Shown: one piece after another, positions 1 through 37,138 of the stretch
Layout: each line of letters begins with the position of its first letter
How positions within the stretch are numbered: position 1 is the stretch's first letter
From: a virus
IMG/VR virus record: IMGVR_UViG_3300038829_000053
Location: 1 to 37,138 of that record
Length of the DNA stretch: 37,138 bases
Strand: one strand, 5' to 3'
Position numbers and translations under genes: made by a program
Notes under the pieces: generated by a model
The model's input: only the letters and a program-made list of their open reading frames with translations
The model's database searches: none
What the model was told of the DNA's origin: nothing

Positions 1-127
1 CCTCTGCATGGGAGATGTATCACCTCCTTTCGGTGTCGGAACATTCCGACGTCATGTCGGTGTATGCAAGGTACTTGTTCCGACGATGTTCCTCGTTGCA
101 CTTCTTCGAGCAAACAAAGCCGTCAAT
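1..127. repeat. Terminal direct repeat, left copy (identical to 37012..37138)
   Basis: Positions 1-127 (cctctgcatggg...gccgtcaat) are repeated exactly at 37012-37138. This implies a circular or terminally redundant genome with a 37,011-bp unit. Confidence 0.95.
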
Positions 128-223
128 GAACTTGCCCCAGCCGAGCGTCTTGGTGCCACACTCGACGCATGGCTGCAAGACGAATGATTCCTTCACTGCA
201 ACTTCCTTGGGTCTCATAGTCAC
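20..223 (-). CDS. Small zinc-ribbon-like protein (67 aa)
   Basis: ATG start with an ATGA overlap onto the upstream gene (220-223). Contains CVEC...CSKKC cysteine pairs. It is the last gene before the wrap-around intergenic spacer. Confidence 0.6.
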   Translation of the reverse strand: MTMRPKEVAVKESFVLQPCVECGTKTLGWGKFIDGFVCSKKCNEEHRRNKYLAYTDMTSECSDTERR

Positions 224-3397: not shown

Positions 3398-3713
3398 GGC
3401 GGGTATAGTTACCGACTAATTTCTCAACACCGTATTCTCTGAATAACTCCTCGACCTCGGTAAGCAGTTTGATGCAGTGGTCTTGTCTCTGCTCCTGCGA
3501 CCACTGTTTCCCCTGCTCAAATCCTATCTCCATTTTGAAACAGCTCGCGGGTCCTTCGTGGTCGACGACTGACACGCGCGGTGGCTGTGGAACTAATGTA
3601 CTCGGTACTGGTGCGGTCGGCGCCATAGACTCTTGCATTTTCTTTACAGTCGCGGCGAGTTCCGTGACCGCCTTGCCGATCGTGATCATGGTATTTCGTT
3701 CGTCCTCGTTCAT
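3384..3713 (-). CDS. Hypothetical protein (109 aa)
   Basis: ATGA overlap with the HNH gene stop (3710-3713). Confidence 0.6.
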   Translation of the reverse strand: MNEDERNTMITIGKAVTELAATVKKMQESMAPTAPVPSTLVPQPPRVSVVDHEGPASCFKMEIGFEQGKQWSQEQRQDHCIKLLTEVEELFREYGVEKLVGNYTRHGVV

Positions 3714-4411
3714 AAAGATATTGTAGCACTCCGAAAGTCAAGTGTTTTCACACTCTTGCGACTATTGCATGGCTTACAAAGCGGTTGGATATTTTCTATA
3801 CCATCCGACCCTCCCATCGAAAGCGGAGTGATGTGGTCTTCCGTAAGCTTCACAAACGGCTCCTGTTGCTTGCAACAGAGACACATGTAGTTGAAGTGCT
3901 TTTTGAGTGCCTCCCACTCCTCGAGAGAATGCGAACCCTCTGCACCAGCTTTTCGTGCCACTCGTTCAAGTACTTTTTTTCGCAGATATTCTTTTCTATT
4001 TTCACCGACCGAAATACCTCCTTTCCAGTGTGGATGACTTTCACCACGCGGTACATGGGTGAGTGACCCATTTTCTTTCCTCCAAATATAAGCACTCAGT
4101 CGAACGCGCTGACCGTTCGGTAACACACCTTTCATCGATTCTTTCTCTCCATAGAAGTGAACCTCGTCGACAATTGTGTGGTTCTTTTTTTCTACCGTCC
4201 GTCTCGCGTACCCTCGTATTCTGAAAGCGTTGTGTACTGCCTGCCGAGTCATTCCGTATGATTCGAGAATGAACCTATCGGGCATGCTGGTGAATCGAAT
4301 CTGGTCAATGCCAACCTGCTCGAGCATGGTCATTATTTTTGCCTGCGATTTACCCCAGTACACATCGGTACTTTTGTATGCACCAGAAATCCAAGTGGGG
4401 GTTTTATTCAT
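3710..4411 (-). CDS. HNH endonuclease (233 aa)
   Basis: C-terminal CLCC...EDHITPLSMGGSDGIENIQPLCKPCNSRK (HNH with Cys4). Visibly more AT-rich than its neighbours. Confidence 0.85.
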   Translation of the reverse strand: MNKTPTWISGAYKSTDVYWGKSQAKIMTMLEQVGIDQIRFTSMPDRFILESYGMTRQAVHNAFRIRGYARRTVEKKNHTIVDEVHFYGEKESMKGVLPNGQRVRLSAYIWRKENGSLTHVPRGESHPHWKGGISVGENRKEYLRKKVLERVARKAGAEGSHSLEEWEALKKHFNYMCLCCKQQEPFVKLTEDHITPLSMGGSDGIENIQPLCKPCNSRKSVKTLDFRSATISL

Positions 4412-4981: not shown

Positions 4982-5638
4982 TCATATCTCAACAACCGCC
5001 GATGTGCGGTTCTTCTTCATGAACGCCGATAATGCTCCAATTCTCTCCTCTAATTGCACTGCGGTCGTTATGGTCGGCGCGTACTTGCTCCCGTGAACCG
5101 CGACGGCCGCCTTGATGGCGTTCCTCGCCTTGTCGAACCCGATGCTCTGCACTACGCGCTGTAAGGCCGCACGCTGACTCTTGTTGGCGAACATACGTGC
5201 GTAGGACGGATTGACCGGCTTGAACTCCTCGATGAGGTCGTTGAGCGGATTGATATTCGGTGCGATCACACCGTCGAGAGATCTACCTTCTTTTTTCAAT
5301 ACAGTCACTGCTTTTTCAATTTCCGCACTTGTCACAAAAAGATTCTGTGTCTTCTCCTCCACCGGCTCTGAAGTGTACGCGAGATGATACTCCATCCGGC
5401 CACTCGGGAGCCGGCGACGCTCGAGCAACTTCGCGCGCTCCAGTTCCTTGAGTACGCGGAATACGATATCCTTGCTTTCCTTACATTCATCAGCGATCCG
5501 CGCGGCCGCGAAATCCCAATCGTCCGGCTTCGAGAAAAGATACGCGTACAGGCCCTTATCTTTCAACGATAAATCTGGTCGCGAGAGTACCTCGTTGGCG
5601 ACCATGGTGAACGGAACATTTGCCTTCGACAGCTTCAT
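4982..5638 (-). CDS. Winged-helix DNA-binding protein, possible replication initiator/organizer (218 aa)
   Basis: N-terminal pattern PFTMVANEVL...LSLKDKGLYAYL...DWDF...IADECKESKDIVFRVLKELERAKLLERRR is typical of phage Rep/DnaD-like wHTH domains. ATGA overlap with the upstream gene. Confidence 0.5.
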   Translation of the reverse strand: MKLSKANVPFTMVANEVLSRPDLSLKDKGLYAYLFSKPDDWDFAAARIADECKESKDIVFRVLKELERAKLLERRRLPSGRMEYHLAYTSEPVEEKTQNLFVTSAEIEKAVTVLKKEGRSLDGVIAPNINPLNDLIEEFKPVNPSYARMFANKSQRAALQRVVQSIGFDKARNAIKAAVAVHGSKYAPTITTAVQLEERIGALSAFMKKNRTSAVVEI

Positions 5639-6165
5639 GTTGATTTCATTATACCTTGTCTGTTAATGGAGTTATCCACTCCCGACCCGCGCGGCCTCCG
5701 ATTATTTGACTGCTCCTTCGGAGTCGCCCATCGGCAGTTTTTCTTTGAATATCCCTTATCGTTGTCAATGCGATCGAGTGTCATCCCAGCAGGTCGATCG
5801 CCCATATCCCTATAGAATCTCTCGAACTTCGACCACTCCTTGCACACCTTGATTCCCCTGTCGCCGTAATACTTATATTCTCGGTACTGCGGTTTATTGC
5901 ATCGATAAAACATTGCACACCACGTCTGATAAATCGGAGTACCCGACATCCCATGGGTTGTCTTCGTTTTTATTCGACTCTCGATAAGAAGACATCCGCA
6001 CGATCTCTTGTGGCCATTCCTCAAATTGACACCTTGAGTCTTCGTGACTTTCCCGCAATCGCATAGGCATGCATACATGAATTGCCCAGCATTCCCTTTC
6101 TCTGAAAGTGCCTTGGTGACGGTCAATCGACCGAATCGTTTACCCTCTAATAGTATTCTCTGCAT
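5635..6165 (-). CDS. HNH-like/homing-endonuclease-related DNA-binding protein (176 aa)
   Basis: GKRFGRLTV...CLCDCG...SCGC N-terminal Cys cluster and LDRIDNDKGYSKKNCRWATPKEQSNN C-terminal motif. This is a common free-standing phage gene family. Confidence 0.6.
   Translation of the reverse strand: MQRILLEGKRFGRLTVTKALSEKGNAGQFMYACLCDCGKVTKTQGVNLRNGHKRSCGCLLIESRIKTKTTHGMSGTPIYQTWCAMFYRCNKPQYREYKYYGDRGIKVCKEWSKFERFYRDMGDRPAGMTLDRIDNDKGYSKKNCRWATPKEQSNNRRPRGSGVDNSINRQGIMKST
5648..5653 (-). promoter_or_regulatory. Putative -10 box G-TATAAT, 9 nt upstream of ATG 5638
   Basis: The minus strand reads aagGTATAATgaaatcaacATG. The box is embedded in the 3' end of the upstream gene. Confidence 0.4.
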
Positions 6166-35417: not shown

Positions 35418-35939
35418 CTACCCATTCACGTACTCTTCATAACTGATTGACTTACGAATGCACATCACATCATCTAAATCGAAACCTTTCTCCGAGGATA
35501 TACCATCGGCGGTCATGCCCTGCGATGACATTGTCTTGATGGTGTCGTAAGAGGATCGACTGAAACGCATCTTGCCGGAACCGCTTCTCTTTGGTGTGAA
35601 GTCGTCCACGATGCCATTTTTCACTACGGGACCATTGATATTTATTCCGATGCCTCCCATCTCCTTGCACCATTTGAAATGGCGAGTGCCGGTGGAACCG
35701 CAACACTCCTTCGTGGTGAACCTGCCTGACTTCGGTTTATCGCCCAGCACACTTCCGACGGTCTTGCGTGCTACCTTCACCACTTCCTTCGGGACATCAA
35801 CGCCGGACGGCGCCGTGCCTGCCCTGATGAAAGCGTGCGCGAGTATCGTGTCTACAATCTCGTCCTGCGTGAGCTCGCGCTCGAATGCGCTCTCTCCCTG
35901 ATCATTGAAGATGGTGATGCTGCCCGAGTACTTGCTCAT
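35418..35939 (-). CDS. Hypothetical protein (173 aa)
   Basis: ATGA coupled to the upstream gene. Contains a CCGSTGTRHFKWC motif. No family recognised. Confidence 0.6.
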   Translation of the reverse strand: MSKYSGSITIFNDQGESAFERELTQDEIVDTILAHAFIRAGTAPSGVDVPKEVVKVARKTVGSVLGDKPKSGRFTTKECCGSTGTRHFKWCKEMGGIGININGPVVKNGIVDDFTPKRSGSGKMRFSRSSYDTIKTMSSQGMTADGISSEKGFDLDDVMCIRKSISYEEYVNG

Positions 35940-36208
35940 ACCAGTATTCCCCTACTCCTGAACATCGAAATAACCTGCTCGCGCGAGTTAGCGAAATATT
36001 GCTTCTCTTTGCCCGACACTCTGAACTGAACGCCTTGCCATCTGCGTGATGCGCGGTTAGCTGGGCGACCTTCTTTCTGTGTTCTCTCTGACAATGAACC
36101 GGGCGTTGGCTCGCTAACGGCATGTTTAATATGCTGATACTTTGCTGAATGTTTTACACTACATACACTGCATGATGCTCTCTCTTCGTCGGTTGAGCAG
36201 TAACTCAT
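35936..36208 (-). CDS. Hypothetical Cys-containing protein (90 aa)
   Basis: ATGA coupled on both sides. Confidence 0.55.
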   Translation of the reverse strand: MSYCSTDEERASCSVCSVKHSAKYQHIKHAVSEPTPGSLSERTQKEGRPANRASRRWQGVQFRVSGKEKQYFANSREQVISMFRSRGILV

Positions 36209-36477
36209 ACCTCTGTGACTTCGTACCAGTCCGTCGCCACGAGATCAACCATGCTCGGCGACCACGTGCCGATTGATCCGTCTGCCCCGCACATATCGAT
36301 ATGCGCTCGATAGGTGACATCTGTGCCCTCCGGGAAGAACTTATTGAGCGGCGCGCGACTGACGGCGAACTTACTGCCGTCCACCAAAAACACATATCGC
36401 GCATTCTTCCACTCCCGACGTCCCCACGCTCCCCCTGCCTTGATGCCTGCTAATGCGATGCTGAAATCTGTTTCCAT
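36205..36477 (-). CDS. DUF2829-family protein (Tad2-like candidate anti-Thoeris sponge; 90 aa)
   Basis: DFSIALAGIKAGGAWGRREW at the N-terminus and GTWSPSMVDLVATDWYEV at the C-terminus match the DUF2829 signature (F..AL..lK.G....R..W ... W.pS..DLlA.DWe.v). Shine-Dalgarno GAAGGA upstream. Confidence 0.7.
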   Translation of the reverse strand: METDFSIALAGIKAGGAWGRREWKNARYVFLVDGSKFAVSRAPLNKFFPEGTDVTYRAHIDMCGADGSIGTWSPSMVDLVATDWYEVTEV

Positions 36478-36489
36478 ATGATCCTTCGA

Positions 36490-36888
36490 TTAGTGAATAC
36501 CAAAACGCTTGTAAAACCGATCGACGAGATCGCCGACCAGATAGCACAGTGCCTCCTCATTCTTCCCCGCCGATTCTGTCGTGCACTCCACGCTCTTGAT
36601 CTTGCGCCGCGCCAATACCGAGAATCCTGCGTGCGTCATCTCGTGTGCGACGTTCCCCCGAGTGAGATGTGGCTTTGAGAAGTAGATGATCGCCGCGTGA
36701 CCGGCCGGAATGAGATCCTTGTATGTGCAACAGTACGCCATCGTATTGTTCGCCACGCCACTCATGCTCCCCTTTGCCCCATCCTTGCGAATCGCATCGA
36801 GCATATCCCGCTGCGTTGCGTACACCCGGCACTCGACTTTCATCCGCGACCCGGTTGGATAAATCACATGGATGATGGGTGACCGCAT
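36490..36888 (-). CDS. Small HExxH zinc-metalloprotease-like protein (132 aa)
   Basis: Contains a GNVAHEMTHAGF motif. It is the first gene after the wrap-around spacer, and its ATG lies 6 nt downstream of TAGAAT. Confidence 0.6.
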   Translation of the reverse strand: MRSPIIHVIYPTGSRMKVECRVYATQRDMLDAIRKDGAKGSMSGVANNTMAYCCTYKDLIPAGHAAIIYFSKPHLTRGNVAHEMTHAGFSVLARRKIKSVECTTESAGKNEEALCYLVGDLVDRFYKRFGIH

Positions 36889-36894
36889 GCCTAC

Positions 36895-36903
36895 ATTCTA
36901 CCA
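36895..36903 (-). promoter_or_regulatory. Putative extended -10 box TGG-TAGAAT, 6 nt upstream of ATG 36888
   Basis: The minus strand reads TTGACAgggggctggcaTGGTAGAATgtaggcATG. A perfect TTGACA lies at 36915-36920, but with only a 14-nt spacer. Confidence 0.55.
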
Positions 36904-36974
36904 TGCCAGCCCCCTGTCAAATCGAGCTGTGCACAACAAAAATACGGCGCAAATACGCCACTGATTTATATAGT

Positions 36975-37000: not shown

Positions 37001-37011
37001 TTGCAGGTAAC

Positions 37012-37138
37012 CCTCTGCATGGGAGATGTATCACCTCCTTTCGGTGTCGGAACATTCCGACGTCATGTCGGTGTATGCAAGGTACTTGTTCCGACGATGT
37101 TCCTCGTTGCACTTCTTCGAGCAAACAAAGCCGTCAAT
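37012..37138. repeat. Terminal direct repeat, right copy (identical to 1..127)
   Basis: Exact 127-bp duplicate of the window start. Confidence 0.95.

Follow-up and report, generated by a model that had tools for sequence, protein, structure and literature searches.

The window analysed here, a 37,138-nt stretch of phage DNA from a groundwater metagenome, carries the gene for a small Tad2-like protein within a run of genes that continues into the packaging genes. The window begins and ends with an exact direct repeat, and the contig is circular or circularly permuted; its unique length is 37,011 bp, and the join is confirmed by a differently rotated public copy. Megablast found no near DNA relative among the GenBank phages, and PHROG scans of the window genes found neither an integrase nor a repressor.

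Every recognisable gene is on the minus strand. In the direction of transcription, the order starts with a 132-aa gene bearing an HExxH motif, followed by the Tad2-like gene, a 90-aa ORF, genes of 173 and 198 aa, a 120-aa helix-turn-helix (HTH) gene and the gene for the large terminase subunit (TerL). After TerL come a 707-aa portal-sized gene (which matched no family), the major head protein, a tail spike and lysis-type peptidases. The order ends with recombination and replication genes, then small genes, and finally a 65-aa Cys-rich ORF that crosses the window ends and is followed by the hairpin and promoter-like site described below. Two HNH endonuclease genes sit in the replication and recombination module. 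Positions are collected in Table 1.

Table 1. Features of the locus and of the surrounding window, numbered from the first letter of the window.
Feature	Position	Strand	Basis and remarks
Exact terminal direct repeat, 127 bp	1..127 = 37012..37138		Exact-match test
65-aa Cys-rich ORF	217..1 continuing 37011..37031	minus	C-x2-C ... C-x3-C, zinc-ribbon-like
HNH endonuclease gene	3710-4411	minus	phrog_2118, E=4e-14
HNH endonuclease gene	5635-6165	minus	phrog_374, E=4e-60
173-aa backbone gene	35418..35939	minus	Closes the slot downstream; 40% identical to the 181-aa gene of L026
90-aa ORF of unknown function	35936..36208	minus	ORF list; directly downstream of the Tad2-like gene
Variable accessory slot	35940..36456	minus	blastn and tblastn against L026 and L027; holds most of the Tad2-like gene and the 90-aa ORF
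Tad2-like (PF11195) gene, 90 aa	36205..36477	minus	ORF list, Pfam, PDB sequence matches, AF2, Foldseek, purifying selection
Central module of the Tad2-like gene (residues 32-61)	~36295-36384	minus	V-x-G-S-x-F-x-V-x-R-x-P-L ... E-G-T ... Y-x-x-H-x-D
Shine-Dalgarno-like GAAGGA	36482..36487	minus	4 nt upstream of the Tad2-like ATG; read from sequence
132-aa backbone gene, HEMTH (HExxH)	36490..36888	minus	phrog_1365, unknown function; first gene after the promoter-like site
Sigma-70-like promoter match, TTGACA-N14-(TG)gTAGAAT	36895..36920	minus	Ends 6 nt before the ATG at 36888
Terminator-like hairpin with U-run	36944..36961	minus	Follows the 65-aa gene and precedes the promoter-like site

The initial annotation of this DNA had proposed a leaderless-type promoter at the head of the gene run. 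A promoter scan with spacers of 16-18 nt found no site upstream of the operon; the actual spacer is 14 nt, combined with an extended -10 box. The match is the sole instance of TTGACA-N13-18-TANAAT in the 37-kb window, where 0.16 would be expected, and 13 of 100 shuffled sequences contained at least one. Three relatives (L026, L027 and L028), with protein identity down to 59%, retain its -10 box at 6-7 nt from the ATG. The match to consensus and the retention of the -10 box together support the predicted leaderless-type promoter. The further suggestion of early anti-defence expression is not supported: from the Tad2-like gene to TerL every junction is overlapping or nearly so, with overlapping stop and start codons, and the string of genes runs on into the terminase and packaging genes.

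The hairpin gives a folding z-score of -1.2 in the window, which is not significant alone, and of -3.6 in L026, which is strong. In L026 (positions 1031-1052) both arms of the stem have changed (GGCG...CGCC against GGCA...TGCC) and still pair, and runs of A and U border the hairpin there, as in a two-way terminator.

The genes that surround the Tad2-like gene are for the most part poorly represented in databases. The 132-aa protein has three homologs, the only ones found, in L026 (95% identity), L027 (84%) and L028 (59%); it matched nothing in Pfam or among PDB sequences, and its AF2 model (pLDDT 63) gave no Foldseek match at E<=0.001. Its motif H82-E-M-T-H86 is conserved, which suggests a small zinc metallopeptidase, and its translation would begin at a leaderless start. 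The 90-aa ORF that follows the Tad2-like gene is tied to both of its neighbours by 4-nt overlaps, at its start with the Tad2-like stop codon and at its end with the start codon of the 173-aa gene. It matched no Pfam family, PHROG or structure, and two of the four public copies have no gene call for it. One homolog of it was found, upstream of the terminase in a related 38-kb phage that lacks a Tad2 gene. The 173-aa protein, for which no family or structure match was found, shares its N-terminus with L027.

The Tad2-like gene and the fold of its product

The Tad2-like ORF starts with ATG on the minus strand, a point that the initial annotation left unstated; translated on the plus strand, the same interval is interrupted by many stops. 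Its product, METDFSIALAGIKAGGAWGRREWKNARYVFLVDGSKFAVSRAPLNKFFPEGTDVTYRAHIDMCGADGSIGTWSPSMVDLVATDWYEVTEV, carries letter for letter the two halves of the DUF2829 signature on which the original assignment was built, F5-xx-AL-xx-IKAG-x4-R20-xx-W23 near the N-terminus and W72-SPS-xx-DLVA-x-DW-x-EV87 near the C-terminus. The assignment holds at the level of the family profile. Pfam PF11195 ('Tad2-like', the DUF2829 profile) matches residues 4-87 over profile positions 2-73 of 73, with E=5.3e-14 and 53 bits against a curated gathering cut-off of 25; the characterised Tad2 proteins score higher on this profile, at 80-90 bits. The product also matches PHROGs 872 and 1048, neither of known function, and PADLOC and NCBIfam returned no match for the gene or its neighbours.

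Searching the sequences of solved structures in the PDB gave ModTad2 (8V3E/9EIB) at E=1.4e-7, followed by HgmTad2/AcrIIA7 at 0.015, SptTad2 at 0.027 and SPO1 Tad2 at 0.055. Consistent with these matches, an AF2 single-chain model built on an alignment of 69 homologs (pLDDT 96.9, pTM 0.82) shows a helix (H5-13), six strands, a second helix (H76-80) and a terminal strand (E84-87), which is the topology (alpha1, antiparallel sheet, short helix, strand) described for Tad2 (10.1101/2023.05.01.538930). When the model was compared with the PDB by Foldseek, the top 24 matches were all Tad2 chains (E<=1.6e-4, probability 1.00) and the 25th had E=1.4. The best was 9EIB, ModTad2 with His-ADPR, at a TM-score of 0.74-0.76 and 29% identity, and in BFVD, the collection of viral predicted structures, the top matches were exclusively Tad2-like/DUF2829 proteins. 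The residues shared across the family (R20, W23, W72, S75, D78, D83 and W84) are all present in the product and invariant in its clade; in 150 wider representatives S75 is found in 100, and each of the other six in 143-148. On the strength of the profile match, the sequence matches to solved Tad2 chains and the fold, the protein is a further member of the known and well-sampled Tad2 family.

Searching 5.8 billion clusters returned 69 homologs, 65 of which form a tight clade of proteins of about 90 aa with 56-80% identity. HMMER over 1.84 billion representatives extended this to 754 clusters at E<=1e-3 and 304 at E<=1e-10. Exact query peptides had no match in IMG/VR, where profile-derived patterns brought up 101 more distant relatives.

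An ORF of this length could also be a chance reading frame or a decayed gene with no function, and its small size, taken alone, speaks for such an origin. However, it matches a curated family (E=5e-14), it shares 19 invariant columns with the 65 clade members, and it has a ribosome-binding site. Compared with six homologous genes, it shows saturated synonymous divergence (pS 0.8-0.9) against a pN of about 0.2, and dN/dS in the only two pairs for which it could be computed was 0.07-0.18. These conservation data refute a chance or decayed ORF, to which we give practically no credence; the Tad2-like ORF is a real gene under strong purifying selection.

A variable slot and the mobility of the gene

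Two close relatives of the phage, L026 and L027, which carry 132-aa genes 95% and 84% identical to that of the window and a TerL that is 85% identical, place the Tad2-like gene in a variable position. Both keep the order of the 132-aa gene, the slot, a gene like the 173-aa gene, the 198-aa gene, the 120-aa gene and TerL. The DNA of L026 is homologous (92.6% identity) as far as roughly 22 nt inside the Tad2-like ORF, and homology picks up again where the 173-aa gene begins. Within the slot, L026 has genes of 77 and 170 aa and L027 a single gene of 81 aa, all unrelated to the window genes. The 77-81-aa slot proteins (L026:1514-1747 and L027:537-782) have in common a motif, VHYHTRGSADG-x-FPP, and no Pfam match. 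By position, these slot genes, including the 170-aa ORF of L026, are candidates for alternative accessory or counter-defence genes.

The same comparison bears on the claim that the Tad2-like gene is the second member of a four-gene cassette. The first and fourth genes of the supposed cassette belong to the backbone, and only the Tad2-like gene and the ORF after it are swapped; none of its neighbours recurs with the Tad2-like gene in other phages. Comparison with L026, L027 and the other Tad2-like loci therefore led us to reject a conserved four-gene cassette.

Another way to view the slot is to follow the gene rather than the position. At other loci the Tad2-like gene is 74-78% identical to that of the window, and TerL is only 29% identical in two of them (L002 and L003), with no TerL match at the remaining Tad2-like loci compared. 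Its surroundings differ from one locus to the next: it lies between portal-sized and capsid-like genes in L002, beside primase and helicase genes in L005, and among small genes in an 89-kb phage (L025). The gene thus behaves as a mobile accessory gene in a hot spot, a pattern that fits an anti-defence accessory gene.

Some copies occur in bacterial rather than free phage settings. One end of a prophage in a 268-kb contig (L023:11325-13643) carries a gene of the clade, and its neighbours are a BglII-type endonuclease, an MT-A70 methyltransferase and a phage integrase, so that a counter-defence candidate there adjoins a defence (restriction-modification) module. Single clade copies with no phage genes within 10 kb were found on the chromosome of Edaphobacter acidisoli (L001:10001-10261) and on a 73-kb contig (L024:10001-10261). 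Between these two and the prophage copy in L023, similarity is confined to the gene and some 35 nt of flank to either side. The orphan copies may be prophage remnants or may represent a very small mobile unit.

The orphan copies are also a reason to ask whether the protein binds its small molecule for some end unrelated to blocking a signalling defence system, such as buffering a host second messenger for take-over or regulation, or a cellular role. In E. acidisoli and on the 73-kb contig they stand among housekeeping-type genes, and HgmTad2 and SptTad2 bind c-di-GMP with high affinity (PMC10680739). On the other hand, most copies with enough context are in phage or prophage DNA, the window gene is in a swap-in slot, and the orphan copies could themselves be what is left of prophages. 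We consider such a non-defence role unlikely.

Pocket residues and the central segment

In SPO1 Tad2 (gp34.65; PDB 8SME/8SMF/8SMG), which binds 1''-3' and 1''-2' gcADPR and blocks type I Thoeris, the main ligand contacts are W25, N26, W73 and D79, the adenine is contacted by T78, I63 and T65, and water is held by N26, D67, H71, W73, S76 and D79 (10.1101/2023.05.01.538930). The window protein shares with it the family, the fold and a length of about 89-90 aa, at 27% identity (E 0.055) and with a central region that is unrelated in sequence. Five of these ten contacts are identical (W23, D66, W72, S75 and D78, corresponding to SPO1 W25, D67, W73, S76 and D79) and one is conservatively changed (M62 for I63). 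The other four are replaced (N26 by K24, T65 by G64, H71 by G70 and T78 by V77), and these positions take in one residue of each of the two sets mutated at the gcADPR site of HgmTad2, W21A/N22A and S90A/T92A/D93A (PMC10680739). The aromatic and acidic core of the canonical pocket is thus kept, and the full gcADPR-type contact set (SPO1 W25, N26, W73, S76, T78 and D79) is not present.

The replacements fall into two altered motifs. The loop between beta1 and beta2 reads W-K-N-A-R against W-N-G-K-G and is one residue shorter, and the alpha3 motif reads S-M-V-D instead of S-Q-T/S-D. Both are fixed, or nearly so, in the clade (K24 in 62, N25 in 65, M76 in 64 and V77 in 65 of its 65 members) and rare outside it. 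Of the 150 wider representatives, 93 carry N and 6 carry K at position 24, and 93 have Q at position 76; at position 77, S or T occurs in 66 and V in 9. Of 69 parsable relatives in IMG/VR, 57 have W-N-G-K, two W-K-N-A and one S-M-V-D, with both variant motifs together in a single relative. The covered portion of the 2023 homolog table, which lists over 650 Tad2 proteins, contains GWNGKG 184 times and neither WKNA nor PSMVD. Accordingly, none of the experimentally tested Tad2 proteins is known to be a near relative. Since the loop and the alpha3 motif are remodelled and fixed in the clade, the exact ligand may differ from those of known Tad2 proteins; the caution of the initial annotation, that the ligand and the targeted system could differ from those of SPO1 Tad2, was well placed.

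The closest solved relative by both sequence and fold is ModTad2 (also MoTad2), from a Myroides odoratus prophage (PDB 8V3E apo, 9EIB with His-ADPR), which sequesters His-ADPR and, in a second pocket, cUMP and cCMP. The two proteins are similar in length, have short central insertions (24 residues in ModTad2, 26 here), share Y56-R57 (in K-Y-R-P-Y) and have a hydrophobic residue at the position of SPO1 Q77 (V in ModTad2, M here). ModTad2 differs in keeping W-N-G-K and S-V-S-D, where the window protein has W-K-N and S-M-V-D, and in being without the GSxFxVxRxPL...HxD central module.

This module occupies a 26-residue segment, from beta2 to the H-x-D strand, that is common to the window protein and all 150 nearest representatives. 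Its near-invariant residues are V32, G34, S35, F37, V39, R41, P43, L44, G51, Y56, H59 and D61, and it is without counterpart in the four solved proteins, SPO1, Mod, Spt and Hgm Tad2. The length of the insertion is likewise constant: the window protein, every one of the 65 clade members and 149 of the 150 representatives have 26 residues. By comparison, the insertion is 35 residues in SptTad2, as aligned here, and 41 in HgmTad2 (PMC10680739). In these two proteins (HgmTad2, which is AcrIIA7, PDB 8KBI-8KBM and 8WJC; SptTad2, 8WJD), which share the family and the core fold with the window protein, the insertion of 35-41 residues between beta2 and beta5 builds the pocket for cGG and cGAMP. At 26 residues, the central segment is too short to be this cyclic-dinucleotide-binding insertion.

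Two features of the segment hint at a ligand site. Y56 aligns with HgmTad2 F70, which stacks on a base in the second, cyclic-dinucleotide pocket (PMC10680739), and the Y-R pair (Y56-R57) is shared with ModTad2, which binds cUMP in its second site. From this we infer that the central module may form a second ligand site. We know of no structure or experiment for the module.

The polar residues of the module raise the question of whether the protein is instead an enzyme that cleaves or modifies the signal, with a catalytic site made of H59 and D61 together with Y56 and R41. H59 is present in 148 and D61 in all 150 representatives of the subfamily, both positions being hydrophobic in SPO1, Mod, Spt and Hgm Tad2, and polar conservation of this degree needs a functional explanation. 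A second binding pocket would explain it equally well, however, given the alignment of Y56 with HgmTad2 F70 in a sponge-type pocket. Ligand degradation is known for no Tad2 and SPO1 Tad2 yielded no degradation products (10.1101/2023.05.01.538930), and Foldseek matched no enzyme fold. Catalysis of this kind is in our view quite improbable.

HgmTad2 brings in a different function for the family. A 2026 report describes head-less AcrIIA7 (the same protein as HgmTad2) as binding tracrRNA via K58, K66, K71, K93 and R101 (pdAcrIIA7 numbering; PMC13133391), so that an AcrIIA7-type anti-CRISPR would act as a tetramer that binds tracrRNA in a positively charged groove and blocks guide assembly of Cas9. 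The window protein shares its family with AcrIIA7/HgmTad2 and matches it by sequence and fold, and the equivalents of K58 and K66 are basic (K13 and R21). Yet the position of K71 (the lysine in W-N-G-K) is deleted, K93 and R101 sit in the long HgmTad2 insertion and are absent from the shorter one (41 against 26 residues), the net charge of the window protein and its clade is -3, and identity with HgmTad2 is merely 24%. Moreover, the anti-Cas9 activity of HgmTad2 and other Tad2 proteins was not reproduced by another group (PMC10680739). An anti-CRISPR function through tracrRNA is accordingly very improbable for the window protein.

A candidate sponge for nucleotide-derived immune signals

The best explanation of the gene is, with reasonable probability, that it encodes a homo-oligomeric sponge of the Tad2 type for a nucleotide-derived immune signal. 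The protein would then be a short, single-domain counter-defence member of the family; its 90 aa are in the range of functional sponges (SPO1 Tad2 has 89 aa). By analogy with the solved members it would most likely assemble as a homotetramer, which in the Tad2 family consists of two V-shaped dimers, with pockets at the subunit interfaces that bind and sequester, without cleavage, an alarm molecule made by the host on infection. With the alarm molecule sequestered, the host effector would never be switched on.

Of the possible ligands, the likeliest class would be Thoeris signals derived from ADP-ribose, similar to His-ADPR or cyclic ADPR, given that His-ADPR is the ligand of the nearest solved relative and that the pocket retains its Trp/Ser/Asp core. 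A different or broader specificity is plausible in view of the remodelled loop and helix motif. The family itself gives reason to expect this: in the 2025 screen of 84 sponges, which included Tad2_71 and other homologs from the same family as the window protein, single Tad2 proteins could block Thoeris I, II, IV, CBASS or Pycsar, so that shifted or broad specificity is to be expected among its members (PMC12393519). The screen set was drawn from IMG/VR, where the clade of the window protein is nearly absent (one of the 69 parsable relatives).

A more specific proposal is that the clade with the WKNA and SMVD motifs is tuned to an immune signal outside the known set of 3'cADPR, 2'cADPR, His-ADPR, N7-cADPR, cUMP/cCMP and cyclic di- and trinucleotides. 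Such a signal could come from an uncharacterised TIR or nucleotide-cyclase system in soil or groundwater bacteria, for example Acidobacteriota. We regard this as a long shot, and the clade might instead bind an already known signal in a novel manner. If the proposal were true, the protein would be usable as bait to fish out the new signal, as ModTad2 was for His-ADPR; Tad2 sponges are already tools for immune-signal discovery in this sense, His-ADPR having been found bound to ModTad2.

A Tad2-like gene in a phage is by itself routine, and Pfam recognises this one at once. IMG/VR holds 2,783 non-redundant Tad2 homologs, and published inhibition across the family extends to Thoeris I, II and IV, CBASS and Pycsar (PMC12393519, among other sources). 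What goes beyond the routine here is the combination of a fixed pocket variant, a central module with no structural representative and a clean swap-in slot. UniRef already labels a close relative 'Thoeris anti-defense 2-like', and the clade occurs in groundwater and other metagenome assemblies.
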